This document shows positions 1 through 16,753 of a stretch of 64,000 bases of DNA, piece after piece (positions within the stretch are counted from its first letter, which is position 1; each line of letters starts with the position of its first letter). Location of the stretch: assembly GCA_937966095.1 (NCBI GenBank), contig CALCKF010000101.1, positions 4,190 to 68,189 of the forward strand. The letters run 5' to 3'. Origin of the DNA: an uncultured Eubacterium sp. (GTDB lineage: Bacteria > Bacillota > Clostridia > Peptostreptococcales > Anaerovoracaceae). The notes under the pieces are model-generated. The model was given only the letters and a program-made list of their open reading frames with translations, did not search any database and had not been told where the DNA came from. The translations under genes were made by a program, and so were the position numbers.

Positions 1-771
1 TCGTTCACGCTTTTTACGTTCGCTTTCTAAAACTTCGAGACGTTCACTTCTATTCGCCATAGCAGATTCAAAAGACTCTATATTATCTTCTATTTCAGAA
101 TTTACTTTTATGTTTGTAGCCAATAACGCTTTATATTCTTTGGTCAAATAGAAAGATTCACCTAAAAAACCATCTCTGTAATTTCTGGAATAACAACACT
201 GCGTTGCAATAAATTCATTTAATGCATCAATTAATTCTTTTGTATAAACAAAATCATTTGAATAATGTTGATTTTCTAGTGAAACTATTTTTTTATCAAG
301 TTTATCAATGAATGTAATCGATTCATTATGTACATCATTAACATCTAGACTTCCTTTATATTCTAAATATATAATATCTCGACTTTCTCTAATAATGCTT
401 CGTATAATTTGATCTATATCAATTACCTTAGATTGTTGTTTTTTTAGATCTTTTCTGCTGTCATCCAATTCTTCAAAATATATTTTTGCATGCGTGTTCG
501 TATCTATATAGTTAAAATACTTCTGTGAATAACGATTGCAATTCATGGAATGTAAAAATATCAAATTAGAGAGTGAAGAAATAATTTTCATATGAACATT
601 TTCTAAATAATATTTAATAGCTTCTGCACTTTCTCCTGACATGTTAGATGTTTCAGCCAGGTTTTCTAAGTCTAACATTAATACCTCTAACTTATCACTC
701 CATTTTTTTGACTGATTTAAAATATTTTCATTTAATTCATGTAAATTATCATAATCTACTTTATAGTTCAT
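1..771 (-). CDS. LXG-domain T7SS polymorphic toxin, N-terminal 257 codons only (the gene runs off the left edge)
   Basis: Absent from the ORF track because no stop lies in the window. My own translation from the ATG at 771 (GGAAGGA about 9 nt upstream) reads MNYKVDYDNLHELNENILNQSKKWSDKLEVLMLDLENLAETSNMSGESAEAIKYYLENVHMKII... and stays open to position 1. It is helical and has the SG.SA.AIK.Y....H block typical of LXG N-terminal domains. It directly follows essC and two small helical partner genes. Confidence 0.6.
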   Translation of the reverse strand, partial: MNYKVDYDNLHELNENILNQSKKWSDKLEVLMLDLENLAETSNMSGESAEAIKYYLENVHMKIISSLSNLIFLHSMNCNRYSQKYFNYIDTNTHAKIYFEELDDSRKDLKKQQSKVIDIDQIIRSIIRESRDIIYLEYKGSLDVNDVHNESITFIDKLDKKIVSLENQHYSNDFVYTKELIDALNEFIATQCCYSRNYRDGFLGESFYLTKEYKALLATNIKVNSEIEDNIESFESAMANRSERLEVLESERKKRER

Positions 772-798
772 AATATGTATTCCTTCCATCTACAAAGA

Positions 799-1080
799 CT
801 ACACATAAGTGAGATTCTCATCTAAAGTCGATATTTCTTCTATCATTTTATTAATATCTCCCATGTCTTTTTCTATAAGTGCCATATATAAATCTATCAA
901 CTTTTTAATAGACTCATGTTGTTCAATATATTCTATAGATGTTTTTAATGTTTTGGTTCCTTCTTCTGCAATAGCATTATATGATTCATTTAATATCTGT
1001 TCATGTCTTTTCACTTGATTAACATCGGCTATCAATCCTTTATTGACCTTAAACTCTATCATAATCCTTGCATCTCCCAA
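799..1080 (-). CDS. Small alpha-helical T7SS accessory protein (LXG-associated Lap / DUF3130-TIGR04197-like)
   Basis: 93 aa, predicted two-helix hairpin (break near AEEGTK) with no Trp, so not a canonical WXG100. Sits between a YwqH-like gene and the LXG toxin gene, the usual place for LXG targeting partners. Confidence 0.4.
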   Translation of the reverse strand: MGDARIMIEFKVNKGLIADVNQVKRHEQILNESYNAIAEEGTKTLKTSIEYIEQHESIKKLIDLYMALIEKDMGDINKMIEEISTLDENLTYV

Positions 1081-1081
1081 C

Positions 1082-1513
1082 TCAATTAAAGAAATTTTCT
1101 ATTTCATTACTTAAACTATTTACCCACGATGATAACTTCCCTATTATTCCAAGCTTTGATAGTATTTCATTTTCCAATCTGGTCATCTCATCGTTTATGG
1201 AGTCTAAAATTCCATCTAAGCAATTATTGTAATATTTGTAATCTTCTTCTAAAACATCGTCCATTATATTATTGAATTTATCAAAGCTTGCTCCTTTCCA
1301 ACAATCTTTCTTTTTACTATTATTTTTATCATCTTTTATAATTAAATAAAATTCTTCCTTTTGGTTTTCAACTTCTTTTTTATACCGTTTTAGACGATTT
1401 AAAGAATACTTATATTCATCAATTTTTTCATAACACGCATTAATTTTTTCTTTTGCATTTCCTATTTGATATAGTAAATCCCTATATATATCTTCGTTTA
1501 CCATATTCACCAC
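1082..1513 (-). CDS. Small helical-hairpin T7SS accessory protein, YwqH/DUF5082-like
   Basis: 143 aa, coiled-coil-rich, with a central W72-K-G (WxG-type) turn between two helical arms. Lies immediately downstream of essC and is separated from the next gene by 1 nt. Confidence 0.45.
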   Translation of the reverse strand: MVNMVNEDIYRDLLYQIGNAKEKINACYEKIDEYKYSLNRLKRYKKEVENQKEEFYLIIKDDKNNSKKKDCWKGASFDKFNNIMDDVLEEDYKYYNNCLDGILDSINDEMTRLENEILSKLGIIGKLSSWVNSLSNEIENFFN

Positions 1514-1519
1514 CCTATA

Positions 1520-4500
1520 TCACGTTGCAACATTCAACACACTCTTCACTTTCACGCACTCATTTTCTTTGATATAATATCCATCACCCATTTCAATCGG
1601 TTTCTTGAATTTTCTCATCACACTAAGCGGCAGGTCGAATATCTTCATATTAGCCACGTCATCAAAATACATAAAGTGCTGCGAATCCTTAACCATCTTA
1701 ACTGCTTCCGGTGCTCCATAAGGGACATTAACGTTTTCAAAGCTCGACGCTATGATGCAGACATTAAGATTTTTATATCTGGAAAGTATATTTTTATATG
1801 CTGTCATTGCCGCAGAATCATTGCTGATCGCAGTCAACGCATCCATATCATCCAGTATGAGAACAATTAGCGGACTTAATGATATAACGTTGTCATCTCC
1901 TTCTATGAGAGCATTGTATCGTTTCTGCAATTCCTTTTCTATGTGATGAACCATATCAACCGCAACATTATGAGCCATCGTATAGGCTACAACATTTGCA
2001 TTATCTTTTATGGATGTCAGTTTCTTATGTATGCTGTCAACGATATATACCTGTGTTTTTCCAGGATACATATCATCAAGCATTCGTACTGCATATTTCA
2101 CGAAATTGTGTTTGCCCGATTTTTCACGTCCGCTGATACCTAATATGCCTATAGATGCAAAATCCAATGTTAATGGAGATACTGTATCATAATTTAAGCC
2201 TGTTACTAATTGATATTTTTTCTTCATGTACTCTCTGTAATTATCTATTACATATTCGTATCCCAAATAAGACGGTATCACAGGGATGATCCTTGCTTTT
2301 CTTCCTTCACTCCTCCTGTTTGCATTTTCTATAAATGCCTTTATATTCTCCACACGCTCTATCTCCTTCTCGCCGGCAAATGCGATATATGACTGGCATT
2401 CAAGATGCTCCTTATCGATTTCTATCAGGCTTCTGCCTTTTATATCCTTTATTCTTTCTCTGCAATGGTCGAACAAAGAGCTGTATTCTCCCGCATCGTT
2501 GCAAAACATGGCAATTCTGCTGGCGAAATTAGACAAATATTTGTATCCTATACCTGCTGTCTGTGCATTAGCAATGATTACGCTTATTCCTACGGACAAA
2601 CCTTCCCTACAAAGATTAAGCAACTCGTTATCTTCCTGGAAATACAGCTCCTTTAAAGCAGTAAGATTGTCTATCATCAAAATGATCTGTGGCATGTCCG
2701 TTAAACCTGCTTCCCTGTATGCAGTAAACGAACTTACACCTATAGACAGCATCTTTTCCTTTCTGATGTCAATTTCTCTGTAAATCATCTTCATCAGATT
2801 CTTCAGCTTCTCATCCTCAGAAGCAGTGACCACTCCACCTACATGGTTCAATGACTCAAAATTTTTCAGGATCATGGAGGCAAAATCTATGATATATATG
2901 TTTACTTCATCCGGTGTGTATTTTTCGGCGACAGATCGGATTATACATTGCAGCAGATTAGTCTTTCCCGTCTGCGCAGAACCGATAATCATCATATTTT
3001 GACTGCCGACATCTACTGAATAAATCCCCTGATATTGTCTGTCCGGATCATCATAAACGCCTATATCAGCTATAATGCTGTAGTTATTTACATTATCTGA
3101 ACCTGACAATACAGGTGGAAATTCTATATACTCAGCCAATGGCGGCAGACAGATATCCGGAAGCTTTATCAGCTTACAATTCCGGCAATACCCGTTTACA
3201 TATTTAACGATTGCATCCAACTGAGTCAGATTACCCTCGCTTTGACTCTTTTTCTTCTGCACATATACAGGTATGCGTTTCCCTGTATCTGTCAAATCTA
3301 CAATTGAAAATTCCTTTACATTGCTGTCATCGGATTTTTCCGGCGCTCCACTGTATGCCGACTGGAACAGCTCGAATATTTCATTATTTCCTACCTGCAA
3401 ATATGCACGGCCCGGCTCTTTTATCTCCGCAGCCAATGGAGACTTCAGCACCTCGTTGCTGTCTTCCTGTGACTGTACTTTCAGACAAAGCTTGAAGCGT
3501 GAATTACTCCATATCTGCTCATTGACCTGCCCGGAAGGCTTCTGTGTAGCCAGAATCAGATGTACGCCAAGACTTCGTCCTATACGGGCTGCTGATATCA
3601 GCTCCTTCATGAATTCCGGCTGTTCTGCCTTAAGCTCGGCAAACTCATCAACTATAATTATCAAATGCGGTAAAGGGTAACTGACTTCACCCGTCTTGTA
3701 TTTTTTTATATATTTATCGATGTGATTGACGTCGGCTTCCACAAAAAGGCGCTGCCTCTTCTGCAATTCGGCTTTTATCGACTTCAATGATCGTTCAATT
3801 TCTTTTCCATCTATATTTGTGATCGATCCCAGAAGATGAGGCAAGTTTTTAAACTGATTCACCATACCACCGCCTTTGAAATCTATGATAACAAAAGCCA
3901 CCTCATATGGATGGAACAGCGTAGCCATAGAAAGAATGTATGTCTGCAATATTTCCGATTTTCCTGAGCCTGTGGTTCCTGCAACTAACCCGTGAGGCCC
4001 ATGAAACTTATCGTGAAGATCCAGAGTCACAATGCCGCTTTTGGAGATTCCTATTGGTGCTGACATCGATTTAAACACCTGAGAGGTCCGCCATCTTTCT
4101 CCTAAGTCCAGATCATCCACTGCAATTATATTCAAAAGCTCAAACAGCGATATATTTTTAGTCAGGCTCCCCTCCAGCGAGATTTCCTCCGTATAAACAG
4201 GAGCCAGCATTTGGACTATATCCTGGACCTGCTTATATCCTATTGCCGTATACGTAAAATCTATCGATGCATTTTTATCTTCGGCACTTATGAGAGTAGC
4301 GGTATCCTCACTTTTTATAGCTATTATTGATCCACAGCCCAGAGGAACTTCCGCCTTATCATTCCCGAAGAAAATAAATGTCACTCCCAACTCATTGGCG
4401 GTGTCCACAAATTTTGAAATAGGGTGGTTTTGAAAGCCATATTCGTCATACATAAATACAATTATATTGTTTTCATACGACTTGTTCTGTTCTCTTCGGG

Positions 4501-6040
4501 TCAATTCTTTATAGAGATACTCGAAAACAATATTTTTACTTTCATCGTTGCAGGCAATATTTCTTATACCCAACTCGTCATTATAAACTTCTGGCAGCAT
4601 TCTCAGCCAATATATATGGTTCTTGTTTTCTTTATCCGCAACAAACACCATTTTCACATCTGAATGGTAGTGTCGGGCGCAAATATCGACAACAATATTT
4701 TTCATGATTGAAAATCTGTACTGGGCATTGCCTATAATTCCTATGGCGTTATTGTTTTTAAGGTCACAGACAACAGGGGCATCTTTGAGATACCTGTATT
4801 CTTCATATATTTCTCTTGGCTTGTCCTGCAGCTTATCTTCTATTTCCAGCTTTTCCTGCTTCTTATAATTTATTTTTTTTACAGACTCAACATCACCATA
4901 ACCTAAACATACACAAAGGAAGTCCTCGTCTTCTTTAGTCCTGTCAAAAAGATCTGACGAAAAATCTTCAAGCAATCTCTGCTCCTTACGCTGTGATATA
5001 TATATATCCTCAAGATCTTTCTTTTCCTGAAAACGAAATTCTTCTATTTCCCTGCGTTTATTTTCTATATAGTTTTCATACTTGATTATTCGTTCTTCCG
5101 TCTTCTTTTTAAAATCCTTCTTATTCTGTATAACGCCGACTATCGTCGTTATGATCGCTAAGCCTCCTGATATTGCACTGAAAATAATCATCATACCGCC
5201 CATGAACGCCATAATGCCTGATGCCGCAAGCATTCCCACAGCTGGCAGCAGACGCATGATTATATTATTTTGCGGCTTCTGCGGCTTAGCAGGCGGATCC
5301 AAAATTTCTATATCCTCTTCATCAAGAACTGTCTTTATCCTGGAATTTCTTCTGAATTTAGGATATTCATATTTATTAAAGCTGTCAGTGTATGGTACTC
5401 CGTTCACTGACAATTGATTGCTCATCTCTGTGTATATACATCGGTTTTTATAGTAAAAGCTGAAATTACCGATAGAGATAAAATCCCCATCTGCGATTAT
5501 CTCATTGTTCTTAGCCAGCTTTCCGTTATGATATACTCCGTATGTTGTGCTGTCTATCTGTATTGCCGCAACACCCTTGCCCTGCCTCAGCAACACCTGA
5601 TCTCTCATGGTGTATTTACTTTCCAGGGCAATATTATTGGACATGCTGCTTCCTATAGACACTGTATCGATCATGGAAACATCTATTTTTCTGTTATAAT
5701 TCTTTTTCTCATTATCAAAGTCAAACAGAAAATCTACCCTGAAAATTTCTTTGTTTGAAGACTGATATTTGACCGATAAGGTATCTCCATGACTCAGCCT
5801 TTTAGTTGCAAGCTTAATGACATCTCCTGTATCAAGATAAATATTATCCGTGCAGAAAACATTCCAGCCTTCATCGTCTTTTCGGAACAGCAATTTGAAT
5901 TCTTCAAAAAAGCTTTCTTTATACAGTCTTATATCGCAGTCAGTATCCATTCCCACGTTCAGCATATTCATGTCGACCGGAAGCTGTATTTCCTTATAAT
6001 AACTATTGCTTGACAGCCTGATGAGATATCCGTATTCCAT
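1520..6040 (-). CDS. essC: Type VII secretion FtsK/SpoIIIE-family ATPase EssC
   Basis: 1506 aa. Has an N-terminal FHA-like YukA-type region and two TM helices (RLLPAVGMLAASGIMAFMGG...AISGGLAIITTIVGVI). Three P-loop modules follow: GTTGSGKSE with IIIVDEFAEL, GSAQTGKTN, and a degenerate GISGREKSGKHN. Confidence 0.92.
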   Translation of the reverse strand: MEYGYLIRLSSNSYYKEIQLPVDMNMLNVGMDTDCDIRLYKESFFEEFKLLFRKDDEGWNVFCTDNIYLDTGDVIKLATKRLSHGDTLSVKYQSSNKEIFRVDFLFDFDNEKKNYNRKIDVSMIDTVSIGSSMSNNIALESKYTMRDQVLLRQGKGVAAIQIDSTTYGVYHNGKLAKNNEIIADGDFISIGNFSFYYKNRCIYTEMSNQLSVNGVPYTDSFNKYEYPKFRRNSRIKTVLDEEDIEILDPPAKPQKPQNNIIMRLLPAVGMLAASGIMAFMGGMMIIFSAISGGLAIITTIVGVIQNKKDFKKKTEERIIKYENYIENKRREIEEFRFQEKKDLEDIYISQRKEQRLLEDFSSDLFDRTKEDEDFLCVCLGYGDVESVKKINYKKQEKLEIEDKLQDKPREIYEEYRYLKDAPVVCDLKNNNAIGIIGNAQYRFSIMKNIVVDICARHYHSDVKMVFVADKENKNHIYWLRMLPEVYNDELGIRNIACNDESKNIVFEYLYKELTRREQNKSYENNIIVFMYDEYGFQNHPISKFVDTANELGVTFIFFGNDKAEVPLGCGSIIAIKSEDTATLISAEDKNASIDFTYTAIGYKQVQDIVQMLAPVYTEEISLEGSLTKNISLFELLNIIAVDDLDLGERWRTSQVFKSMSAPIGISKSGIVTLDLHDKFHGPHGLVAGTTGSGKSEILQTYILSMATLFHPYEVAFVIIDFKGGGMVNQFKNLPHLLGSITNIDGKEIERSLKSIKAELQKRQRLFVEADVNHIDKYIKKYKTGEVSYPLPHLIIIVDEFAELKAEQPEFMKELISAARIGRSLGVHLILATQKPSGQVNEQIWSNSRFKLCLKVQSQEDSNEVLKSPLAAEIKEPGRAYLQVGNNEIFELFQSAYSGAPEKSDDSNVKEFSIVDLTDTGKRIPVYVQKKKSQSEGNLTQLDAIVKYVNGYCRNCKLIKLPDICLPPLAEYIEFPPVLSGSDNVNNYSIIADIGVYDDPDRQYQGIYSVDVGSQNMMIIGSAQTGKTNLLQCIIRSVAEKYTPDEVNIYIIDFASMILKNFESLNHVGGVVTASEDEKLKNLMKMIYREIDIRKEKMLSIGVSSFTAYREAGLTDMPQIILMIDNLTALKELYFQEDNELLNLCREGLSVGISVIIANAQTAGIGYKYLSNFASRIAMFCNDAGEYSSLFDHCRERIKDIKGRSLIEIDKEHLECQSYIAFAGEKEIERVENIKAFIENANRRSEGRKARIIPVIPSYLGYEYVIDNYREYMKKKYQLVTGLNYDTVSPLTLDFASIGILGISGREKSGKHNFVKYAVRMLDDMYPGKTQVYIVDSIHKKLTSIKDNANVVAYTMAHNVAVDMVHHIEKELQKRYNALIEGDDNVISLSPLIVLILDDMDALTAISNDSAAMTAYKNILSRYKNLNVCIIASSFENVNVPYGAPEAVKMVKDSQHFMYFDDVANMKIFDLPLSVMRKFKKPIEMGDGYYIKENECVKVKSVLNVAT

Positions 6041-6049
6041 AGTTACACC

Positions 6050-6301
6050 TTATTCTGTAAAATTAATTACTGTAGCATTTCTAACGCCAAAATCCGACAG
6101 CAGTTTGTTTCCTTTAAGTAATGCGATAGGATTTTCCGCTTTTAAATAGCAGTTTTTTACATCTGAAACGTCTATTCCCAATTTATATGCAGAATTGAGC
6201 GCAATAACAAGATCGTTGGCCGAAATGTCGAGAGGCACTTCCAGATCTGCTTCGAAATTTCTTTTTTCTATCTTAAAAATAACTATTGCTTTATTTTCCA
6301 T
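6050..6301 (-). CDS. esaB: EsaB/YukD-family ubiquitin-like (beta-grasp) T7SS protein
   Basis: 83 aa with the pattern FEADLEVPLDISANDLVIALNSAY typical of YukD/EsaB, located directly upstream of essC. Confidence 0.7.
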   Translation of the reverse strand: MENKAIVIFKIEKRNFEADLEVPLDISANDLVIALNSAYKLGIDVSDVKNCYLKAENPIALLKGNKLLSDFGVRNATVINFTE

Positions 6302-6310: not shown

Positions 6311-7357
6311 TTAAAGAATCAGCGCTGCAACCTTTTGAATTTCTTCATGCTCTGCAATCTCCTGCAGGTCCATAGTCTCAAGCTTTTCTATATATGCTAT
6401 TCTCTCACTTATCGGGAACCCAGCCTTTCCAGCTAATTTGCCGTATGACTCCTCCGACAAGTCATCACTGCATGCATTGCAAACGAAATAATATTTTTCC
6501 TTATCACTGCAATCCATATTCTCAGTTAATATATTCATTGCAAATATCGAAGACTCCGTGTTTATCAACATTAATATTACTTTATCTGCCAATGCTGCCA
6601 ATTCTGCCTTTTCCATATCCACTATGTTGTCCGTATCAACTACAATGACATCGTACTCAGCAGACATACGGGCTCCCGCAATCACACGTCTATAAACAGA
6701 AAAGCCAAGACCTATAGCTGAAAGTGATTTCGTAAACGGAGGCATATAGTCAAATCCTTCGTTCCTTACAGCGTTTTTAACGAGTTTGTATGCATCATTT
6801 TTGTTATCAGTAATCTCCGGATACAACGATGACGGCAATGAAGTTTTATCATTTAAATAAAAATGAAAAGTATTGACTCTCTCCGCATTTACATACAATA
6901 CTCTTTGATAATGCTGGGAGAGATATTGGCTTATCCCCATCGCCAAGGTTGTCTTGCCAACACCTCCCGACGCCGAGCAAACCATAACAACCTGTGTGGT
7001 TTTTGTCTTATCTCTTTTTTTTAAGTCACCCTCTGCAATTATCCTGTTATAAATTTCTCTGATACTAGTATACTTAAAAATATATGTGACTCCCCGTTCT
7101 GACAGATTCTCGTTCTTTGACTCAGTCAAAACAAAGACATTTCTAAAATTTTGTTTTTGAAGCTCCGGAGAATATAACTCCTCGCTTATAATCAGAATAT
7201 CCGCATCCTGCGGATGCGAAAAATAATATCCAAAATAGTCCGTATCTGTGATTACTTGGAGCTCTATATATTCTGACATTCCTTCAAGAAATTTGATTTC
7301 CAGAGGAGCTATTATCGTTTCATCAGTATCGACAAGCACTACAACTGATTTTTTCAT
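6311..7357 (-). CDS. TadZ/CpaE-like ParA/MinD-superfamily ATPase with an N-terminal pseudo-receiver domain
   Basis: Walker A is SASGGVGKTT (the signature Lys of KGGxGKT is replaced by Ser). Walker B-like YDVIVVDTD is present. The N-terminal approximately 110 aa follow a receiver-like beta/alpha pattern, but the expected phospho-acceptor position reads ILIISEE (no Asp). Confidence 0.6.
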   Translation of the reverse strand: MKKSVVVLVDTDETIIAPLEIKFLEGMSEYIELQVITDTDYFGYYFSHPQDADILIISEELYSPELQKQNFRNVFVLTESKNENLSERGVTYIFKYTSIREIYNRIIAEGDLKKRDKTKTTQVVMVCSASGGVGKTTLAMGISQYLSQHYQRVLYVNAERVNTFHFYLNDKTSLPSSLYPEITDNKNDAYKLVKNAVRNEGFDYMPPFTKSLSAIGLGFSVYRRVIAGARMSAEYDVIVVDTDNIVDMEKAELAALADKVILMLINTESSIFAMNILTENMDCSDKEKYYFVCNACSDDLSEESYGKLAGKAGFPISERIAYIEKLETMDLQEIAEHEEIQKVAALIL

Positions 7358-8281
7358 TTAAAACTCCTCTCGTATTTCTGCTTTAAAATCGCTGTTAGCT
7401 AATCGTATAATATCTCCGGAATGGATTTCTCTGGGTGTCTCAGGCACAAGCCTCACACCATTGACAAATGTTCCGTTAGAGCTGCCCATATCTATGACAA
7501 AATACTTCATATCCTTATATATGAAATCACAATGATGTCTGCTGATAGCACTGTTGAACGTTATCTGCCCATCAGTATCAGGTCTTTTTCCGACGGTGAA
7601 TTTTTCCTTATCCACAACAAATGTCAAATCGGACGGATCTCCCTCGTAATTCAAGACAAGGACAGGTTGTCCGGCATTGTAATTAGAATCCGCATCTATA
7701 TTATCTGCTATTGTTGATTTACTTCTTCTTACTTCAGCAGAAATCTTCTCGTAAATCTGTCGCAATGAATATTGATTCTCTGAAAAGTATCTGCGTATAT
7801 CCAAGGTTTTGCCGGGTATTGCCTGCTCAATTATATCCAGCTGAGCTGCGATATATTTTATAAATCTGCTTTCATATTCAATATTATCTTGTTTTTTAGT
7901 ATTGATCGGCAGATATATAAGGTGTATTTCATATGTCTTTACATTGACATATAGTCTGTTAAATGAAATATCCAAATTGTTACATTTCAAAAATCCGATT
8001 TCTTCTATATCCATAATAGCTTTGATGAGGTTTGCTATTATAACGCACAGCTCTTCCGGACTGATCGTCTCGATCAGTCCGGATAGAGGCCTATAGCCGG
8101 AAACAAGATATACAAATTGTATTTTCCCATTAAAAAGTACTTTTGAACATTTTATGAGATGCTTCCTGCTGCGTCCGTTCAAAACTTTATATTCAGTCAA
8201 AGCAAACATATTATTATCCTTCAGCAAATATGCAGGATTAGCTTCAACCATTTTTTTGATTATCTTTTCTGCCTCTGCCAA
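7358..8281 (-). CDS. FHA-domain protein (approximately 190-aa N-terminal domain of unknown function plus canonical C-terminal FHA)
   Basis: The C-terminus VGKRPDTDGQITFNSAISRHHCDFIY...SSNGTFVNG keeps the pThr-binding Arg, Ser-x-x-His and Asn-Gly residues. The N-terminal domain is paralogous to that of ORF 15731..16753. Confidence 0.8.
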   Translation of the reverse strand: MAEAEKIIKKMVEANPAYLLKDNNMFALTEYKVLNGRSRKHLIKCSKVLFNGKIQFVYLVSGYRPLSGLIETISPEELCVIIANLIKAIMDIEEIGFLKCNNLDISFNRLYVNVKTYEIHLIYLPINTKKQDNIEYESRFIKYIAAQLDIIEQAIPGKTLDIRRYFSENQYSLRQIYEKISAEVRRSKSTIADNIDADSNYNAGQPVLVLNYEGDPSDLTFVVDKEKFTVGKRPDTDGQITFNSAISRHHCDFIYKDMKYFVIDMGSSNGTFVNGVRLVPETPREIHSGDIIRLANSDFKAEIREEF

Positions 8282-8307: not shown

Positions 8308-11300
8308 TTACATATCTTCAGATATTGCTTCTTTGCCTTTTCTTCTTTTAACAAATGCAATGATACCACCTGTCACAGCAGCCAATGCGATGAGTGATCC
8401 GATGAACAGCCATGTATTGGCAAACCATCTGACAAATATATTTGTGGATACTGTTATCGTATCGTTGAATTCATATGCCGGTTTAAATTCTTCTGACGAT
8501 GTATCCATAACATTCCCGGCCTTATCCTCCGCTACAAGCCTAACGTCCTGTTTGAGGCCGCCATGCACGATGAAATCATCGCTGCAATTACTCAAGTCAT
8601 CAAATTTATCGATGTTTTTTACCTTCTTGCCATCTACATATACTGTTACCTTATCCAGTCCTATTGCATCAAACACGTCGAACGTTACCTTTTGTTCATC
8701 AGCATTAACAATAGATTCTTCAAGTCCCTTTATGCTTGTAAATTCAGGAGCAACAGAATCGACGCGGAACATCGCATCCAGCTCCTCATAGTTGGATGTC
8801 TCCGGCTTATTCCCGACCTCATCTTCAGAGGCGACCGTTATGCTGTAAACTCCATCCTTAGCAAAATTTGAGGCAGCTATATCGTATTCATATTGATACC
8901 ATCCACTGCTTCCTATAGGCGCGCTGCTGTTGATCACCGGTGTAACGGAGTATTCAGGATTTTTCAAAGGTGTCCCGTCTTTTGTGATCTCCAGTTCAAG
9001 CGACCCCTCTACCAATCGATCCGGATTATACTCGGTTATTACAATATTCCGTGTAACTTGTTTAACATATTGATCCTGCAATGAAGACAGATATTCATTA
9101 TAATCATATACCGAACCGAATCTGTTCACTGTAAACGTAATACTCTTTTCTGAACGGTTGCCTGCTTTATCGACCATTGATACCGTTAATTTATATATGC
9201 CGTCGTTTTCCTGTATTTCCTCAAAGGTATTGCATGTAATAGTGCCTCCATGTCCATCTCTGGCCAATCCTCCGATATATTTGCTGGTCACATTGACATT
9301 CTGTTCATCTTTCCTCGTTCTGAGCAACACTATATCGTGACTGTCATAATTTACATCATCAAGATCGATCACAGGAATAACAGTGCCTTTGTATGAATTC
9401 CCGTCTTCAACCCCTGTTATAAATGGCTCGTTAATCTCAGTATCAATTGTAAACTGAGCGCCGGCAACGGTTCCGCTCACATAGCTCACGCCGTTATTTT
9501 TATTCCCGGCTTTGTCTTCCACTTCGATATTGAAGGTATAATCTCCGTCTGCTCTGTATGCTACAGTTGCTGTATGCGTATCTCCGCTGCTCCTTGCCCA
9601 ATTGATGTTCGGCTGACTTATATTGGCGCCGTCTAATGTCGCTCTTATATCAAAAGTAACTCTGTTGACATCAAAATTATGTTCCTGCACTGTAACAGTA
9701 GCAGTTCTCACTCTATCGAAGTACTTACCATTGGAAGCACTGTTATTATCATACCTGACAGATACTCTCGGATTTGTTTTATCAATGGTGAATACTGTTG
9801 TGGCTTTATTATCATCAGCATACTTTACATTATCATTTTCGTTTTCCGCTCTATCATTGACTTTTACGTCAAATGTATAATCTCCATCTTCTTTGAAGGT
9901 AACAGTAGTTTCATAACAATCTTCATCATTACCCTCGCCGCCTTTTATACCAGTTGCCTTCCATTTCAGAGCACCGAAATCATAAGCCTTCTTATCCTTT
10001 GTCACTGAAAGCGTAGTGTTTTCTGCATCATCAGGATCAAAATTTCGATCATATACTGTAATCGTTGCAGTTCTGTTTTTATTAAAGTATCCATTATTGT
10101 CTTCATCACCGCTGGCAGGATCATAGTCTACTTCTACAACAGGCTTCTCATTATCGATACCAAACGCATAATAATCATAGCTGATGTTACCGGAGTTATC
10201 GGTAAGTTCTACAAGAATAACCATATCGTTAGAACCTCCGGATACCTCAAAGTCCTTAAAAACAAGCTTACTTATCAGATTTCTGTCTTTTGTAGCTTCT
10301 GTTTTCACGTTATCGTCACTGGAAGAAATGTCTCCCTGTTTATTTACTGTAAGAGTATAGTCAAAAGTTCCCGGTACAGTGCTCTTTTCAGCTTCTGTTT
10401 CAAGGACTGCACACCGTATTTGAGCTATACCTGAATATTCGTCCTTGACACATATATCAAATTTTATCGTCCCGTTCTTTGATGCATACAAACTGACATC
10501 ATCTCCAGCACCTCCAAAATCTTCATATCCATTTTCAGACAGCCCGCCATTATTGACGTCGCGCTTTATCATGCTGTTCGGATACACGTATCCTGCAAAT
10601 TTCTTTGTCTGAGTAAAATCTGTTTCAGGCGCTGAAAACTGTATAGCTGACGTTTCTAAATGCTTTTCTTCATTTTCCCATATTATCCCTTGCGGATGCT
10701 TTACTTCTGTTTCTCCACGCGTATTGCCCAGTTCATCGATGGCATATGCCTCTATCTGACCTTTAAAGCCTTTGTCGATTTTGACAGTAATTTTATTATC
10801 CTTTACCTCTATATCCTGCCACCCTTCATCGCTGGTACCGTCTTTGTCGACAAGTCTATACACTATCCTTCCGCCCGCAACACCCGGCAAAGAAACCTCC
10901 TCCGTTGACTGTATATCATCGGATGTTATAGTCACTTCAACGGCTTCCTTAAAGAAGTATCCATATTTCGTTTCTTTCAATGGAGCTGATTCTTCTGTCA
11001 TAATTTCTGCTTTATCCATGCCTTCAGTTTCATATGAAAAGCTAACGGTAGGGGCATATTTATCTGTTGCGAACTTCCAGTCGTTATTACCTTCACTGTC
11101 TCGATTATTTCTGTTGACATCTATCCAATCAGTCAGATTTCCTTCATCGTCCTGAAATACCACATAATATTCTCCATTGATATTTGTCTTAGTCTCTTCT
11201 GTTGCAAGGGTTTCCGAGTTCCATGTTATACTGTCATCCTGTGAAGCCTCAATTACTGACTTTTCAGCCATTTCATCAGTACGCTTCAATAACTTGACAT

Positions 11301-12642
11301 TGTGATCTGTTGTCGAAATCTCAAAAGTGCCGTTGCTGTACCACTTACCATTCCTTTTAACATTTTCCGTACCATTTGATGAAAGTATTATATCTACATC
11401 GTCATAGACGACCTCAACAGTATATGTTGCTTCCTTGCCGTCATACGGGGAAACCGGTTTTGCCGTTACTGTTATTTTTCCGGCGCTTTCATATGTAACT
11501 ATTCCGGTATCCTTGTCGATAGCGGCACCTGTTTTTCCTTCAGTCTCAGCACTTAATGCATATTCCACATTAACACCGTCAGTTGCAGATGTTGCCGGAT
11601 ATTGAAATGTATTATTTTTATTGACTGTGATCCTCTCAGGGATACCACTAAACGCAAGATCATTTACTTCAATTGCAGCGATTACCAGTTTATACTCTGC
11701 CGTCGCCGCATAATTCCCGCCTGACATAAACGCTTCTATCGTCACCTCTCCAGGTGATGTATATGTCAATATCTTATTCGCCGGATCAACTTCAGCCCCG
11801 GCAGTATTTGCACTGTTATCTTTGACTTTGTAGCTTATATTGGTAACATTCAGGTTTTTGTCATTTACAGTTACTTCTTGAAGTGTTATCTGTTGGCTTG
11901 TTATGTTATATTCCTTTTTTTGGGTCGTTTCTGCGAATGACAACCCGTTATCAATTTTCTGCTGCGCAATGCTTGCTTTTACACTGTCTGCGTACGTTTC
12001 ATATCCATCTTTCGTGGCTTTGAAATATATGTTATAATCACCGGCGTTTGTCCCCTGTGGTACATCATCGCTGAAAGTGCCATCTTCATTCAGAGAATAT
12101 TTAATGCTCCATCCGGATTCCTGAGAATCGTTAAGCAGATCCTGTGCTCCACCGGTGTATTCCAGATCGCTTTTCACGCAGCCGTTGATGTGAGCTTTTA
12201 TTTCATTTTTATCTGCTTCGTCAAGTACTGCTTCTTTTCCCAATGAAATGGCGATCCATCCCACCTGCTGATTGGCCCAGCTTTGACTGACAGATATAAC
12301 GTCCTGCTCGTATTTGACATTTCCACTTGCTGTGGCCTCATTGTTTTTATTACCGTTTACATATACATTGATCTGCGAAGTGTCTTCCACACCTTCTACC
12401 TTTATCCGATACGAATAATTCTCACTATCCTGAGCAGTGGCCTCGGTCACTCCGTGAATATAGAATTTCACCGACTCACCGGGTCCTGCGTTGACACCAG
12501 TTTCTGTTATTTCCAATTCCTGTGGGTTCTTTTCCGCCGCCTGTACAATTTCCATCGCGCTGAATGGTATCGTTGTAAATACCAGGGCCGCACAAATTAA
12601 CAAAGTGATAAATTTCGGGACTGCTCTGCCTTTCAAAACCAT
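8308..12642 (-). CDS. Giant Ig-like-repeat cell-surface protein (signal peptide and C-terminal TM anchor)
   Basis: The ORF is open to 12711 (1467 aa), but the ATG at 12642 has a GAGAGG RBS and begins MVLKGRAVPKFITLLICAALVFTTIPFS (signal peptide). It has many repeated beta-rich modules ending in D.AGN-type motifs (EDKAGNKN, VDKAGNRS, EDKAGNVM, DELGNT, DRAENEN). The C-terminus is WLFIGSLIALAAVTGGIIAFVKRRKGK, with no LPXTG. Confidence 0.7.
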   Translation of the reverse strand: MVLKGRAVPKFITLLICAALVFTTIPFSAMEIVQAAEKNPQELEITETGVNAGPGESVKFYIHGVTEATAQDSENYSYRIKVEGVEDTSQINVYVNGNKNNEATASGNVKYEQDVISVSQSWANQQVGWIAISLGKEAVLDEADKNEIKAHINGCVKSDLEYTGGAQDLLNDSQESGWSIKYSLNEDGTFSDDVPQGTNAGDYNIYFKATKDGYETYADSVKASIAQQKIDNGLSFAETTQKKEYNITSQQITLQEVTVNDKNLNVTNISYKVKDNSANTAGAEVDPANKILTYTSPGEVTIEAFMSGGNYAATAEYKLVIAAIEVNDLAFSGIPERITVNKNNTFQYPATSATDGVNVEYALSAETEGKTGAAIDKDTGIVTYESAGKITVTAKPVSPYDGKEATYTVEVVYDDVDIILSSNGTENVKRNGKWYSNGTFEISTTDHNVKLLKRTDEMAEKSVIEASQDDSITWNSETLATEETKTNINGEYYVVFQDDEGNLTDWIDVNRNNRDSEGNNDWKFATDKYAPTVSFSYETEGMDKAEIMTEESAPLKETKYGYFFKEAVEVTITSDDIQSTEEVSLPGVAGGRIVYRLVDKDGTSDEGWQDIEVKDNKITVKIDKGFKGQIEAYAIDELGNTRGETEVKHPQGIIWENEEKHLETSAIQFSAPETDFTQTKKFAGYVYPNSMIKRDVNNGGLSENGYEDFGGAGDDVSLYASKNGTIKFDICVKDEYSGIAQIRCAVLETEAEKSTVPGTFDYTLTVNKQGDISSSDDNVKTEATKDRNLISKLVFKDFEVSGGSNDMVILVELTDNSGNISYDYYAFGIDNEKPVVEVDYDPASGDEDNNGYFNKNRTATITVYDRNFDPDDAENTTLSVTKDKKAYDFGALKWKATGIKGGEGNDEDCYETTVTFKEDGDYTFDVKVNDRAENENDNVKYADDNKATTVFTIDKTNPRVSVRYDNNSASNGKYFDRVRTATVTVQEHNFDVNRVTFDIRATLDGANISQPNINWARSSGDTHTATVAYRADGDYTFNIEVEDKAGNKNNGVSYVSGTVAGAQFTIDTEINEPFITGVEDGNSYKGTVIPVIDLDDVNYDSHDIVLLRTRKDEQNVNVTSKYIGGLARDGHGGTITCNTFEEIQENDGIYKLTVSMVDKAGNRSEKSITFTVNRFGSVYDYNEYLSSLQDQYVKQVTRNIVITEYNPDRLVEGSLELEITKDGTPLKNPEYSVTPVINSSAPIGSSGWYQYEYDIAASNFAKDGVYSITVASEDEVGNKPETSNYEELDAMFRVDSVAPEFTSIKGLEESIVNADEQKVTFDVFDAIGLDKVTVYVDGKKVKNIDKFDDLSNCSDDFIVHGGLKQDVRLVAEDKAGNVMDTSSEEFKPAYEFNDTITVSTNIFVRWFANTWLFIGSLIALAAVTGGIIAFVKRRKGKEAISEDM

Positions 12643-12697
12643 TGTTACCTCTCTTTCTGTTTCATTCCCTGTAAATGTAACTGCCAAACGATTTTCA

Positions 12698-13237
12698 TTA
12701 TATTTTTTCATCAGTATGTACTTTTATTATTTCCTGTATTATTTTCAGCTTACCTTTATCAGGTGATGATGCTGTCAGCTGCTCTGTTTCCATATCGCCG
12801 GTGCTGTTTGCCAGTTCCGCCGTCGTCTGCAAGCTCCCATCCTCTATGGTGCAGGCCTCTTTATCCGAAGTCTGAGCCATTGCTGCCTCCGCCAGCTCTT
12901 CTGTAGTAAGCACGTCTGTTGCGTTAAAGTCAATATGCTCGAGCTTTTCAGTAGGTGTTCCTGAGAGCTTTTCCTTAGGAGGGCTTTCTTTCACCTTTTC
13001 TATTTCTTCTGTGATTTTTCCTCTCCTGTAAGCGTCTACCGTAGCTCGATGTATTTTTATTCCGCTCTTCTCATTATCCCTTCTGAGCTGAGCTATCGAC
13101 CTCCGTGCTGTCTTACCGCTCAGATCGTTGATAATATCAAGTATTTTAAACTTAAACCATAAATAAGCTGTTGCTCCCATTCCCAGTATCGCCAGAGAAA
13201 AGCTAATAATGGCAATCAAGTTATATGCCTGGGTCAT
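12698..13237 (-). CDS. Small membrane protein (N-terminal TM, acidic low-complexity tail)
   Basis: 179 aa with TM helix LIAIISFSLAILGMGATAYLWF. Overlaps the kinase gene's 3' end by 17 nt, which suggests translational coupling. I do not recognise the family. Confidence 0.45.
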   Translation of the reverse strand: MTQAYNLIAIISFSLAILGMGATAYLWFKFKILDIINDLSGKTARRSIAQLRRDNEKSGIKIHRATVDAYRRGKITEEIEKVKESPPKEKLSGTPTEKLEHIDFNATDVLTTEELAEAAMAQTSDKEACTIEDGSLQTTAELANSTGDMETEQLTASSPDKGKLKIIQEIIKVHTDEKI

Positions 13238-14948
13238 ACGCTTCTCTCCTTTCTTCTGTATTAAGATATATACGTTCTACATTTTCGATATAGTCACTGC
13301 ATGAGCTTATAACTTCTTCCTGTATCTCTATTGATGCTTGCTGCGTAACGAATATATCCTGAGCGCCCTTTTTTATTGTATTGAGAGTTTCCTGCACTTC
13401 ACTTTGCAGAATCCCTGTAGTAGCAAACCCTTTTCTGTGGTTATTGATAAGATTTGCCAGTTCTCTGTACATCACCAGTTTAATGTAATTGGAATCATCA
13501 GACTCGTAGCCTTCCACATTTTCTATGCAGGTATTGATGGCATCGAGCAAATTCTCATAAGCTTCACGATCCGGCTCCCTTACGCTTGTGGCATTGATGA
13601 CATACTGCGAGTAAAAATCGCCTATCATATCGTAGCTCCGTGCTACATTATAATATTTATAGCCTTTATCGCCTGTCTCTGTAATCGACTCAAAATACGG
13701 CGCAGCTTTCAATATTCTTGTTCTGAAAGAGTCATCACCTCCGGAATACAGGTACAGGTAGGTACTCCCTGCCTTATACGCCAGCTGCTTATAGTCATCT
13801 TCAGTTTTATCGAATTTATCTTGATTCTGGTTATATTTTGTCGTAAATTGATTACTCTCCCGGTCTCCGAAACTTCCATTCTGTTCAAATGCGTCCAGTA
13901 GCTTTATGTATGCTCTGACATCCCCTCCATATATATCGATAGCCTCAAGATACGTATTTACCTTTGTCTCATATGGAGTGGATTCCGATATATTTATTTT
14001 TTCCTCATAATTTCTGCTGTTTTCAAAATGCATCAGCAACAGGGATAAGCCTCCGATCAGAGCAAGGCATATTGTCGCTGCGGCTGCTATAATGAAATTT
14101 TTTAATTTTTTCTTTTGACTGTTCCTGTATTCTTCTCCGATATGCTTATAATTGTTCAGATCATAGAGCAATTCATTACAATTGGAATATCTGTCATCCG
14201 GATCTATAGCTGTACATTTGTCAATTATGTACTCTATCCCTTCATGGATTTCAGGGTTCCACTGTCTGACAGGAAAGTATTCATAGTCATTTCCTCTTGG
14301 ATCGACTCCTGTAAGCAAGTGGTGCATAGTCATGCCCAGTGCATATATATCTGATCTCGCGTCAGTCTGCCTGGAGCCATATTGCTCAGGCGGCGCATAT
14401 CCCTTTGTTCCCAGAATAGTTGTATCCGCAAGATTTTTTTCTTTATATTCCCTTGCAATTCCGAAATCAATTATCTTTATATTGCCTTCCGGCTTGAGCA
14501 TCACATTGGCCGGTTTCATATCCCTGTAAATTATCGGGGGACTTTGGGAATGCAGGTATGATAACGCATCACATATCTGCATCGCCCAATCTATTACAGA
14601 CTCCTGTGGCTGTGTTCCATATTCCTTTAATATTTTATCCAGAGATTCACCTTCCACATAATCCATCACGATATACAAGGTCTCTCCGTTATCTATGATA
14701 TCTACGATTCTCGGCAATGCAGGATGATCAAGCCGCTTCATCAAATTAGTTTCAGCTATCAGGCTATTTATTACGACTTCATCATTTCGGCCATTCCCTG
14801 TTTTTTTAACTTCTTTAACCGCCCACTGCTTATTCAGTCTTCTGTCCATAGCCAGGTAAACTATCGACATACCGCCTCTGCCAATTTCTTTTAAGACTTC
14901 ATATTTATCATCTATAATTGTGCCTATTTGTGTGGCCATTATTTTCAC
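13221..14948 (-). CDS. Hanks-type Ser/Thr protein kinase, membrane-anchored, with a non-PASTA extracellular domain
   Basis: G-loop GRGGMSIVY, Lys in WAVKEV, catalytic loop YRDMKPANVML, DFGIA and GTKGYAPPEQ are all intact. TM helix FIIAAAATICLALIGGLSLLLM is followed by an approximately 270-aa helical ectodomain. Confidence 0.9.
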   Translation of the reverse strand: MKIMATQIGTIIDDKYEVLKEIGRGGMSIVYLAMDRRLNKQWAVKEVKKTGNGRNDEVVINSLIAETNLMKRLDHPALPRIVDIIDNGETLYIVMDYVEGESLDKILKEYGTQPQESVIDWAMQICDALSYLHSQSPPIIYRDMKPANVMLKPEGNIKIIDFGIAREYKEKNLADTTILGTKGYAPPEQYGSRQTDARSDIYALGMTMHHLLTGVDPRGNDYEYFPVRQWNPEIHEGIEYIIDKCTAIDPDDRYSNCNELLYDLNNYKHIGEEYRNSQKKKLKNFIIAAAATICLALIGGLSLLLMHFENSRNYEEKINISESTPYETKVNTYLEAIDIYGGDVRAYIKLLDAFEQNGSFGDRESNQFTTKYNQNQDKFDKTEDDYKQLAYKAGSTYLYLYSGGDDSFRTRILKAAPYFESITETGDKGYKYYNVARSYDMIGDFYSQYVINATSVREPDREAYENLLDAINTCIENVEGYESDDSNYIKLVMYRELANLINNHRKGFATTGILQSEVQETLNTIKKGAQDIFVTQQASIEIQEEVISSCSDYIENVERIYLNTEERREAYDPGI

Positions 14949-14949
14949 C

Positions 14950-15717
14950 CTACATACACTTCAATACCACAGCAGTGATATTGTCCCGTTCATTTCTTGA
15001 TTTTATGATTTCGATCAATTCATTTTCTCTTCTGTATATATCGGCAACATCGCCTAAAGTCCCCGGAGCCAGCGCATCATACATTTCTTTTTCATCGAGC
15101 AAATGTCTGAATCCATCTGAACATAAAAGAAATACAGTGTTCTTGGCTATCGTGCCTAATTCAATCTGGGGCTCAACGTTTTTCGATGCGCCGACACACT
15201 GTAAAAGGACTCCTCTCCGTGGATCATTTTCTGCTTCCTCTCTAGTCAGCCTCCCCTGCTCAATCTCCCTTTGCATCAAAGAATGGTCTTTTGTAATCTG
15301 TCTTACGGTGTCCGTGATCTCATATATTCTGCTATCTCCTACATGTGCGAACATATATTTATCATCTATTATCAATATTCCGCTCACTGTAGTTCCAATG
15401 TTCTCATTTTTCATCCTGCCGAATTCTTTTATCAGATCGTTCTGCTCACGCAGAAGATGATTCCATTGACCTCCGAACTCCTGCAATGTAATGGAATCGT
15501 AATCTGCAGACAGATCCTCATCAAACCACTTTATTAACCGTCTGATAACCGTGGCGCTTGCAAGCTCTCCTCGGGCCAACCCGCCCATTCCGTCACAAAC
15601 CACAGCCATTGCTATGACTCTTCCATCGGGTGTTTCGGCTATTTTAAGACATGCACTGTCTTCATTTGTTGTTTTGACTATTCCTCTATCTGTTGCTACT
15701 GCTCCTACACACTTCAT
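14950..15717 (-). CDS. PP2C-family Ser/Thr phosphatase
   Basis: Motifs VCDGMGG, VGDSRIY, LLCSDGF and DNITAVV are present. Starts 1 nt after... strictly, its stop lies 1 nt upstream of the kinase start, so the two look translationally coupled. Confidence 0.9.
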   Translation of the reverse strand: MKCVGAVATDRGIVKTTNEDSACLKIAETPDGRVIAMAVVCDGMGGLARGELASATVIRRLIKWFDEDLSADYDSITLQEFGGQWNHLLREQNDLIKEFGRMKNENIGTTVSGILIIDDKYMFAHVGDSRIYEITDTVRQITKDHSLMQREIEQGRLTREEAENDPRRGVLLQCVGASKNVEPQIELGTIAKNTVFLLCSDGFRHLLDEKEMYDALAPGTLGDVADIYRRENELIEIIKSRNERDNITAVVLKCM

Positions 15718-15730
15718 GGTTGTCTTTCTT

Positions 15731-16753
15731 TCATTTACCTTTCTCTACATGGAATGTAAACCTTTCATTTGCCAGCATTATTGAATCCTCATCGTAGATT
15801 TTCATCCTGTTGCCTGCTTTTATTTCCTTCCCATTGACAAATGTTCCGTTTGTGGAATTATTATCTTTAATGTAAAATGTTTCTCCGTCTGTTATGATAT
15901 CTGCATGTATCCTGCTCACTGCGTTATTGTTATTTACGAAACAGTCTACATAACTCCTTTCCTTGCCTATCCTGAACACGGGTTTATCTATTTCGATCCG
16001 TTCCTGTGTACTCAATCTGATGAGGTGGGCTCTCACATTATTTTCATTAAAGGGGGATTCATTATATGGATTATCTTTATCCAACAGAGAGGTCCCTGAT
16101 AGTATCGAGGTTTTCCCCTCTTCCTCCAGCATCGTAGTTTTCCAGTTTTCGTTTTCAATATTATAATTATTTTTCTGGTTCCCATGACTTTCATTGCTCA
16201 ATTCCGGTTCTATTCTCAACAGGCATTTTTCAAATTCATCTGAAGAATATGACCGTTGAGAATTTATAAAATCAGATATTACATTTATAAAATATCTGTT
16301 TTCCTCTCTAAATAGATTTACCACTGAAAGCATATATGCAAAAAAAGCAAAAATATCATTATGCTTATAATTTCCATATATTGGCTGGTATATGAAAGCA
16401 AGTCTCTTAGTTGCTTCATTAAAAAAAACAAAATTATGATCCAGCGTCAATTTATTGATATCAAAATTTTCTGCGCTTAACTTTTTTGTTACATATACTG
16501 TCTGCATAAGCAAATCAAGGAATCGTTTTCTACTCATCTGCTGACCTATATATTGAGCCAACGTAACATGTCCTGAAACAATATATAAAAGGTTTCTTTT
16601 ATTTGTTAAAGTTGGGATAATTAACCCATCGGCAGAACATCCTGTCAATATGTGAAGCTCATTTTTATCTATAATCTCCCCTCTCATCAATTTGACCTTC
16701 ACTACTTTTTTATATTCATTGTTAATAATTTTGAATTTAGCCATACAATACAT
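15731..16753 (-). CDS. FHA-domain protein, paralogue of 7358..8281
   Basis: The C-terminus IGKERSYVDCFVNNNNAVSRIHADII...STNGTFVNG is a canonical FHA. The N-terminal domain shares the layout and motifs of the other FHA protein (LTLDHNFVFFNEATKRLAFIYQP versus NNLDISFNRLYVNVKTYEIHLIYLP). The start could be the ATG at 16744. Confidence 0.8.
   Translation of the reverse strand: MYCMAKFKIINNEYKKVVKVKLMRGEIIDKNELHILTGCSADGLIIPTLTNKRNLLYIVSGHVTLAQYIGQQMSRKRFLDLLMQTVYVTKKLSAENFDINKLTLDHNFVFFNEATKRLAFIYQPIYGNYKHNDIFAFFAYMLSVVNLFREENRYFINVISDFINSQRSYSSDEFEKCLLRIEPELSNESHGNQKNNYNIENENWKTTMLEEEGKTSILSGTSLLDKDNPYNESPFNENNVRAHLIRLSTQERIEIDKPVFRIGKERSYVDCFVNNNNAVSRIHADIITDGETFYIKDNNSTNGTFVNGKEIKAGNRMKIYDEDSIMLANERFTFHVEKGK

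Follow-up and report, generated by a model that had tools for sequence, protein, structure and literature searches.

Toxin delivery by type VII secretion systems (T7SSs) of the T7SSb type influences how Gram-positive bacteria compete. Garrett, Higginson & Palmer (Microlife 2024, PMC11217815) used the phylogeny of EssC and the neighborhoods of its genes to define eight subtypes, T7SSc-j, whose components include a transmembrane (TM) Ser/Thr kinase (TsxD), a PPM phosphatase (TsxF), a protein with one TM helix and an unstructured cytoplasmic part (TsxH), a large protein with a Sec signal, immunoglobulin (Ig) repeats, and a C-terminal TM helix that is proposed to be the EsaA analog (TsxI), a protein joining DUF6382 to FHA (TsxJ), a zinc-ribbon single-TM protein (TsxK), and a TadZ-like ATPase (TsfV). 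Regulation by threonine phosphorylation was proposed in the same work by analogy with the type VI secretion system (T6SS). Here, we describe a T7SS locus occupying positions 1-16753 of a 64,000-nucleotide stretch of DNA from an uncultured Eubacterium sp. (contig CALCKF010000101.1, positions 4,190 to 68,189; the whole stretch is hereafter called the window). This locus fits no published subtype cleanly. We consider it very probably a complete chromosomal T7SS variant within the T7SSc-j family, in which a T7SSf-like core (genes J2-V-B-C-A) is joined to a T7SSe-like upstream module (J1-F-D-H-I).

T7SSb, represented by the Ess system of Staphylococcus aureus and the Yuk system of Bacillus subtilis, shares with the locus an EssC with FHA domains, two TM helices, and ATPase domains, a YukD/EsaB-like protein, WXG100, an LXG toxin with Lap partners, DUF4176, and a pseudokinase-fold partner. 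By contrast, the window has no EssA, EsaA, or membrane-bound EssB. Its predicted pseudokinase is soluble and FHA-fused, and a kinase, a PP2C phosphatase, a TadZ-like ATPase, and an Ig-repeat giant are added. An earlier note on this DNA had read such a composition as an undescribed architecture and a possible distinct clostridial subtype. The composition is indeed not that of T7SSb, and a conserved replacement set with a kinase/phosphatase/FHA control layer is present, but the component types were published in 2024, and only their combination is new. What remains novel is the mosaic of T7SSf and T7SSe features, the fold-level identification, from structure models, of DUF6382 as an EssB-like pseudokinase, and a set of shared TxxL motifs.

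A probable mosaic of T7SSf-like and T7SSe-like modules

Twelve open reading frames (ORFs), all on the minus strand, make up the locus. They are separated by 0-26 nucleotides (nt) or overlap by 14-17 nt, the tight co-directional packing that the earlier note had described, and from right to left we label them J1, F, D, H, I, J2, V, B, C, two Lap genes, and LXG. The T7SSb parts that had been recognized from the sequence (EssC, a YukD-like protein, two Lap-type partners, and an LXG N-terminus) are all present, the YukD and Lap matches falling below their profile cutoffs. Each of the replacement genes (two FHA proteins, PP2C, Hanks kinase, small TM protein, 1467-amino-acid [aa] Ig protein, and TadZ-like ATPase) was likewise identified.

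The T7SSf likeness lies in the core. The gene order J, TadZ-like V, YukD-like B, EssC, WXG100 is that of T7SSf, V is listed for T7SSf only, and PP2C is found in both. Gene C (1520..6040) encodes an EssC/TsxC membrane FtsK-type ATPase (TIGR03928 T7_EssCb_Firm, 1155.9 bits vs. 778.4) with two N-terminal FHA-like domains (FHA profile match at residues 127-191), two TM helices at residues 260-301, and Walker A motifs at residues 688, 1020, and 1304. The FHA-like N-terminus and three P-loops noted earlier can thus be seen, the third P-loop in degenerate form. In FHA2, the GR and SxxH motifs are absent and NG is conserved in the window and in 18 relatives (19/19). This is the state tabulated for TsfC (GR 0%, SxxH 0%, NG 88%), whereas phosphothreonine motifs are kept in TseC (GR 98%, SxxH 99%, NG 90%) and TsjC (100% for all three; Table S1, PMC11217815). 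The EssC N-terminus also aligns with TsfC: residues 8-1192 align at 37% identity with P0376, a representative whose cluster includes four accessions on the TsfC list of Garrett et al. (Clostridium tertium and Clostridium sp.). By contrast, the phmmer alignment to B. subtilis YukB (9qks_G) begins at residue 203 only, so that the FHA region is not alignable with that of YukB. When representatives were searched with EssC residues 1-1200, ~60 (50% clustering) shared the FHA motif pattern and aligned from the N-terminus; a homolog search with residues 1-350 returned fragments only, with no named anchors.

Gene B (6050..6301) encodes a YukD/EsaB-like ubiquitin-fold protein (TsxB) whose PF08817 match is weak (24.5 bits vs. 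27), and B homologs of 81-101 aa occupy the equivalent position in all related loci. Gene V (6311..7357) encodes a TsfV-like, TadZ-like ATPase with AAA_31 and CbiA matches and two domains, the N-terminal one receiver-like and the other carrying a MinD/ParA P-loop (SASGGVGKTT). The best Protein Data Bank (PDB) match of the V family profile, spanning both domains, is 3fkq (E 6e-25), which we take to be the Eubacterium rectale TadZ structure (Xu et al. 2012). Garrett et al. cite Xu et al. 2012 for TadZ (PMC11217815). The V family comprises 89 clusters at 35-66% identity, and in each related locus V is flanked by J2 and B.

Against these likenesses, T7SSf was defined without a kinase and with a J anchored by two TM helices, whereas the window has an intact kinase, H, a TM-anchored 1467-aa Ig giant, and two soluble J proteins, both with FHA. 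Published T7SSf species are Clostridium acetobutylicum, C. felsineum, and C. tertium (PMC11217815). The locus that encodes P0376 (L079) reads Ig-like 988-aa protein, J, V, YukD, EssC, WXG100. It differs from the window in having no kinase or PP2C within 10 kb upstream, in its J, which is DUF6382 followed by two C-terminal TM helices without FHA, and in its V, which matches that of the window only at E 5e-16. In L079, a T2SSE-family ATPase and small membrane proteins (L079:15061-16449) sit directly downstream of WXG100 and are unlisted as T7SSf core.

The T7SSe likeness lies upstream. The window shares the D, F, H, I, and J component types with T7SSe and T7SSj (H not being part of T7SSj), and K-like zinc-ribbon TM proteins are found further downstream. 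J1 (15731..16753) is TseJ-like, the second DUF6382 plus FHA protein of the locus (PF19909 and PF00498), and its FHA region is 57% identical to published TseJ (Fig. S4 sequence; E 3e-35), compared with 46% for J2. J1 and TseJ share the GK and SRxH motifs of FHA and upstream motifs of the TTVL type. F (14950..15717) is a TsxF-like PP2C/PPM Ser/Thr phosphatase (PP2C_2, E 1e-9; Stp1/IreP family, E 3.5e-50). D (13221..14948) is a TsxD-like membrane Hanks-type Ser/Thr kinase (Pkinase, E 7e-52), intact at K45, YRDMKPAN at 141, and DFG at 161, with a TM helix at residues 286-304 and a predicted topology of a cytoplasmic catalytic domain, one TM helix, and an extracellular domain of ~270 aa. H (12698..13237) is a TsxH-like 179-aa small membrane protein with a TM helix at residues 7-25, and I (8308..12711) is the TsxI-like Ig-repeat envelope protein, with weak Big_13 and Big_3_4 matches and hydrophobic segments at residues 28-46 (signal-peptide-like, Sec-type) and 1436-1454 (C-terminal TM anchor). 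Here too, there are differences. V is absent from the published component lists of T7SSe and T7SSj, the core of T7SSe includes a pair of WXG100 proteins (A1 and A2) where one was seen within 10 kb downstream in our case, and T7SSj has no TsxH and a TsjD with a TPR C-terminal domain, while the window has H and a D without a TPR profile match.

It is possible, though on balance doubtful, that the locus is an ordinary member of T7SSf or T7SSe and that its differences reflect nothing more than incomplete 2024 core lists. Every component type is named in that study, the motifs of the EssC FHA domains follow the TsfC pattern, and the 988-aa signal-peptide Big_13 Ig-like protein directly upstream of J in the TsfC locus (L079:4495-7461) is unlisted as T7SSf core, which means that the published core lists are incomplete. 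In addition, several accessions on the TsfC list (WP_195..., WP_291...) are untraced to an organism or locus; they might come from the clade of the window, which would then already be lumped into T7SSf. This account has to accommodate an intact kinase, H, I, and soluble J in a subtype defined as kinase-free with a two-TM J. It also has to accommodate an EssC clade with neither GR nor SxxH in subtypes that keep both at 98%-100%, and a V listed for T7SSf only in a locus whose V is that distant from the V of a TsfC locus. Finally, none of the four traceable accessions of the window clade (0/4) is in the lists of the paper. We therefore prefer the mosaic assignment.

Conservation across related loci

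Related loci were taken from encoding contigs (L002-L005) and from a genome scan with the V profile (L006-L025), with flanks of 10 kb, and gene presence was scored by phmmer of the window proteins against all ORFs of these loci. Counts from the genome scan are lower bounds among the matches listed, and C. acetobutylicum is not among these. Two further EssC representatives resembling those of T7SSe and T7SSj (L080 and L081) lie on contigs that end too close to the gene for their context to be informative. All window proteins are singletons at 90% identity. Still, J2-V-B-C is shared by all 24 complete related loci compared, the order being kept in every long-enough locus of L002-L024, short or cut contigs aside, and most loci also carry I, D, H, and F. 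I homologs of 1087-2949 aa lie upstream of J2 in at least 16 scored loci, the kinase is present in at least 15 of the 26 loci counted, and the order D-H-I is kept in at least 10. The block recurs in Lachnospiraceae, Acutalibacteraceae, Anaerovoracaceae, and Clostridium loci, with [Ruminococcus] torques ATCC 27756, Roseburia amylophila, Clostridium polynesiense, and a Mediterraneibacter as named carriers. The variant is thus encoded by abundant human-gut Lachnospiraceae: the 90% EssC clusters of R. torques and Roseburia amylophila have 1575 and 1941 members, respectively, and the system is therefore abundant in gut metagenomes. Two variants of the envelope proteins were seen among relatives (L012:3889-8922 and L021:4512-8723), and in the first, a kinase domain is fused to a protein of 1677 aa whose TM helix lies near residue 352.

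These data bear on whether two unrelated operons, a kinase/phosphatase/FHA adhesin module and a minimal T7SS, simply abut in the window, as the earlier note had allowed for. STK/PP2C/FHA triads are found in many unrelated contexts, and four related loci (L005, L018, L023, and L024) have J-V-B-C-A without kinase, H, or I. However, the association holds in at least 15 loci from several families, with EssCs 40%-62% identical to that of the window, and survives rearrangement in two loci found via distant J homologs: in L082 I and J are separated by a toxin cassette, and in L083 D and I are divergently oriented. The genes of the window overlap or sit no more than 26 nt apart, and the same component types co-occur with EssC in published T7SSd, T7SSe, and T7SSj. 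Moreover, loci with and without the D-H-I module are interspersed in an EssC tree. We regard chance adjacency as very improbable. T7SSe and T7SSf appear as recombining modules.

Besides J-PP2C-V-YukD-EssC, L083 has a TPR-containing kinase in divergent orientation and an Ig giant of 1705 aa. Its J protein is named as Aeriscardovia sp. (Bifidobacteriaceae) by one source. Provided that the contig is binned correctly, B, J, and V, none of which belongs to the published actinobacterial T7SSd, would occur in an actinobacterium.

A predicted EssB-like pseudokinase fold in the J proteins

The earlier note had found nothing resembling EssA, EssB, or EsaA. At the level of sequence profiles this stands, as no ORF matches the Pfam or NCBIfam models of EssA, EssB/YukC (PF10140 and TIGR03926), or EsaA, either among the twelve of the locus or in the window at 17-64 kb. 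For EssB, structure modeling leads to a different conclusion. J2 (7358..8281; PF19909 and PF00498) was modeled with AF2 at full length, with a predicted local distance difference test score (pLDDT) of 90.9, and as residues 1-195, the DUF6382 domain, from a 65-sequence alignment (pLDDT 90.7, predicted TM-score [pTM] 0.86). Foldseek with the full-length model returned FHA matches only. With the DUF6382 model, the best match was the N-terminal pseudokinase of TraF from the pIP501 type IV secretion system (8cba, E 6e-6), a protein published as a structural homolog of EssB/YukC. B. subtilis YukC/EssB itself (6z0f) matched at E 3.6e-5 and TMq 0.63, and further matches included chain 9qks_C from the T7b core unit of B. 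subtilis and EssB of G. thermodenitrificans (4ano). The E-values for TraF-N, YukC, and EssB, from 6e-6 to 2.5e-4, put them ahead of most active kinases, which scored TM-scores of ~0.4-0.55; an inactive EGFR (4hjo) ranked fifth, above 4ano. A Pfam scan of 65 J homologs at E<=5 gave no YukC (PF10140) or Pkinase match, so the link to EssB is structural only. Neither J1 nor J2 has a TM helix or other hydrophobic segment. Based on these models, J1 and J2 are soluble EssB-like pseudokinase domains fused to FHA, and EssB appears remodeled rather than simply absent.

Would a strongly diverged canonical T7SSb explain the locus equally well, with J as EssB, the Ig giant as EsaA, and the small TM protein as EssA? 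EssC passes the NCBI equivalog model for T7SSb-type EssC, the DUF6382 model has the EssB/YukC-like fold, H and EssA are both small single-pass proteins, and I and EsaA are both large envelope proteins. Yet J has no TM or extracellular domain and carries FHA, which is absent from EssB, and I is a Sec-signal, Ig-repeat, single-anchor protein with no sequence similarity to EsaA or to any PDB entry, whereas EsaA is polytopic (5-6 TM; Supplementary Data 3, PMC11217815). The profile searches, the alignment of the EssC FHA region with TsfC and not YukB, and a kinase, PP2C, and V without T7SSb counterparts likewise speak against it. We judge this explanation improbable, and keep to a mosaic variant within T7SSc-j.

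Not every J in the V family is soluble. One relative (L024:8897-9991) has a J whose DUF6382 and FHA are separated by two TM helices (at ~213 and ~237), as in the TsfJ topology, and has no kinase or Ig giant within 10 kb; therefore, anchored and soluble J proteins both occur inside the V-family EssC clade.

TxxL motifs and a possible phosphorylation switch

The FHA domains of the J proteins keep SRxH and NGT, and candidate ligands for them lie in H and J1. The classical ligand of an FHA domain is pTxx(I/L). H has no family match and a Thr-rich tail that is probably cytoplasmic and disordered. Nine H homologs share the TM helix, a basic juxtamembrane motif, an RGxhT[DE]xI threonine, and repeated T-x-[VIL]-L, and a C-terminal IHT[DN]ExI motif is conserved among H homologs. 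In the tails, Txx[ILMV] was observed 50 times, where 23.1 would be expected from shuffled tails (~two-fold). The J1 linker has three TxxL motifs (TTML, TSIL, and TSLL). Motifs of the form [EG]-T-x-[VIL]-L cluster in J1 linkers, and published TseJ has GTTVL twice. As judged from its sequence, H is a candidate phospho-Thr docking scaffold.

Two known regulatory systems offer parallels. In T6SS (PpkA/PppA/Fha, and TssL of Agrobacterium), the genes of the secretion machine are likewise accompanied by those of a membrane Hanks kinase, a PP2C, and an FHA adaptor, and the logic to be expected here is that phospho-Thr on a membrane component recruits an FHA protein and licenses assembly, an analogy drawn in PMC11217815. 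The machine is nevertheless unrelated and the FHA here is fused to an EssB-like pseudokinase, so that the likeness is a functional analogy and not family membership; NCBIfam TagH/VI_FHA matches in the locus are weak. GarA and OdhI of Actinomycetota resemble J1 in having a Thr acceptor motif upstream of FHA in one polypeptide, but they regulate metabolic enzymes and have no pseudokinase domain. Both J2 and J1 give weak OdhI matches in NCBIfam.

From gene content, order, and conservation, together with the identity of EssC, the DUF6382 fold, the FHA motif states, and the intact kinase, we infer the following mechanism. By analogy with T7SSb, EssC hexamers would export WXG100 and complexes of the LXG toxin with Lap1 and Lap2. 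In the core-unit structure of B. subtilis, YukD fixes the FHA domains of YukB, and a dimer of the YukC pseudokinase binds FHA2, a contact that YukD stabilizes; similarly, B may stabilize the FHA domains of EssC and the pseudokinase domains of J may dock there. Since the EssC FHA is without phosphothreonine-binding residues, the FHA domains of J should be the ones to read the output of the kinase, and since J has no TM segment, its association with the membrane or the complex would depend on phosphorylation. D would phosphorylate TxxL/I motifs in the H tail and/or the J1 linker, to be read by the FHA domains of J, and F would reset the phosphorylation state.

This could work in two ways. In one, phosphorylated H would draw J to the membrane and so restore an anchored pseudokinase of the EssB kind. 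In the other, which resembles GarA/OdhI, the phosphorylated J1 linker would be bound intramolecularly by its own FHA. TsfC-type loci, where a kinase is missing and J is anchored by TM helices of its own, lend partial support to recruitment by H, with L005, L018, and L023 as exceptions to this correlation between an anchored J and the lack of a kinase. As for the other components, I may span the wall as a conduit or contact sensor replacing EsaA, as Garrett et al. propose, and V may position or nucleate the machine in the way that TadZ does for Tad pili.

More tentatively still, a split, phospho-switchable EssB might define a further T7SS subtype that is very common in gut commensals, which we hold to be less probable than not. 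The pseudokinase would have lost its anchor and gained FHA, joining the EssC/YukD core only after the membrane kinase phosphorylates TxxL repeats on H and/or the J1 linker, and in this way assembly would respond to an extracellular signal that the kinase or the Ig giant senses. Clostridial T7SSf, with TM helices in J and no kinase, would be the constitutive form. The recombining modules, the EssB-like DUF6382, and the TxxL motifs on H and the J1 linker together make up a testable model, in which phosphorylation would gate the assembly of a type VII machine in parallel to the threonine-phosphorylation pathway of T6SS.

Several points weigh against the mosaic assignment and the switch proposed for it. 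A neighbor-joining tree of EssC, which is too crude for deep branching and was relied on for clade membership of V-family loci alone, places the clade of the TsfC anchor outside that of the window, and the call of a T7SSf-like core rests on synteny, V, and the FHA motif state rather than on a robust phylogeny. The likeness of DUF6382 to EssB is at the level of fold (~10% identity, TM-score ~0.6, and no Pfam YukC match), and generic kinases also match the model at a TM-score of ~0.5. In the FHA domains of J, a nearly invariant GK replaces the canonical GR. Enrichment of TxxL is modest, and in some H homologs it does not reach significance. There is no kinase, H, or I within 10 kb in L005, L018, L023, or L024, where the phospho-module is therefore dispensable or encoded elsewhere. 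Finally, the searched literature contains no experimental study of T7SSc-j, which later papers name in passing, and mentions DUF6382 only in Garrett 2024, so that the mechanism stands on analogy.

Substrates and genes beyond the left edge of the window

At its left end, the locus encodes two Lap-type partners and the start of a toxin. The YwqH-like small helical partner (1082..1513) matches PF16888 at 33.1 bits vs. 33.7, contains a weak WXG100-like stretch, and has homologs in L011, L013, L014, and L017. The DUF5344-like partner (799..1080) matches PF17279 at 26.5 bits, slightly below the cutoff of 27, and a syntenic homolog precedes the LXG gene in L011. The LXG gene (1..789) is truncated by the window edge, leaving the N-terminal 263 aa of an LXG-domain toxin (PF04740, 49.1 bits vs. 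a cutoff of 26.5, E 8e-13).

We could follow the locus past this edge on L001, a public metagenome contig that is identical to the window contig and extends further left. There, the full LXG gene (467 aa, L001 15270-16673) is followed by DUF4176 and then by a WXG100 gene (97 aa, L001 17120-17413; TIGR03930, 74.2 bits vs. 44.85) that lies ~0.95 kb past the left edge. The absence of WXG100 (EsxA) stated in the earlier note was thus an artifact of the window edge. Extension to the left, which that note had suggested, yielded esxA and the complete LXG toxin but no identified immunity gene, and only one bona fide WXG100 was found within 10 kb downstream. The LXG protein is a likely T7SS substrate. 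Its C-terminal half is glycine-rich and hydrophobic (ANIITGSVALIGAIALTVVTFGAAGPAVAIGCGALIGG...) without a Pfam or NCBIfam match, and by its sequence it looks like a glycine-zipper, membrane-targeting toxin.

Downstream of WXG100, L001:17527-19966 encodes two small helical proteins (139 and 88 aa) and then a 576-aa all-helical protein without a family match, which looks like a second Lap-Lap-substrate cassette. It is followed at L001:20056-24239 by a third FHA protein (144 aa, stand-alone, with NH replacing NG), a 141-aa protein, and five zinc-ribbon (DZR) proteins. Four of these five have TM helices, and one, a 78-aa single-TM protein, resembles TseK as described. Comparable zinc-ribbon membrane proteins were seen inside the R. 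torques, Mediterraneibacter, and L008 loci.

Genomic neighborhood

The remainder of the window, at 17-64 kb, is chromosomal, with an AgrC-like/LytTR system, cell-wall polysaccharide genes, rpoD, and dnaG, and the T7SS locus is chromosomally encoded. A promoter had been assumed upstream of the locus in the earlier note. This found no support in a promoter/terminator scan, which stayed at chance level, promoter-like sites being no more common than in shuffled sequence.

Directly upstream of the T7SS operon, at 16967-19830, are three genes. The first encodes a polytopic protein of 425 aa that has an H-box of the AgrC type (KHDIANH) but no ATPase domain, the second a divergent LytTR response regulator, and the third a separate 239-aa GHKL (HATPase_c_5) protein. 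Together they may form a split quorum-sensing-type regulator of the T7SS operon. A LytTR protein, TsiN, is part of the published T7SSi (Garrett 2024, PMC11217815). Further along, at 22587-24167 on the minus strand, lies a gene for a 526-aa protein with TIR_2 at its N-terminus (E 1e-18) and a cupin domain at its C-terminus, which sits inside the cell-wall polysaccharide gene cluster, an odd setting for a TIR protein.

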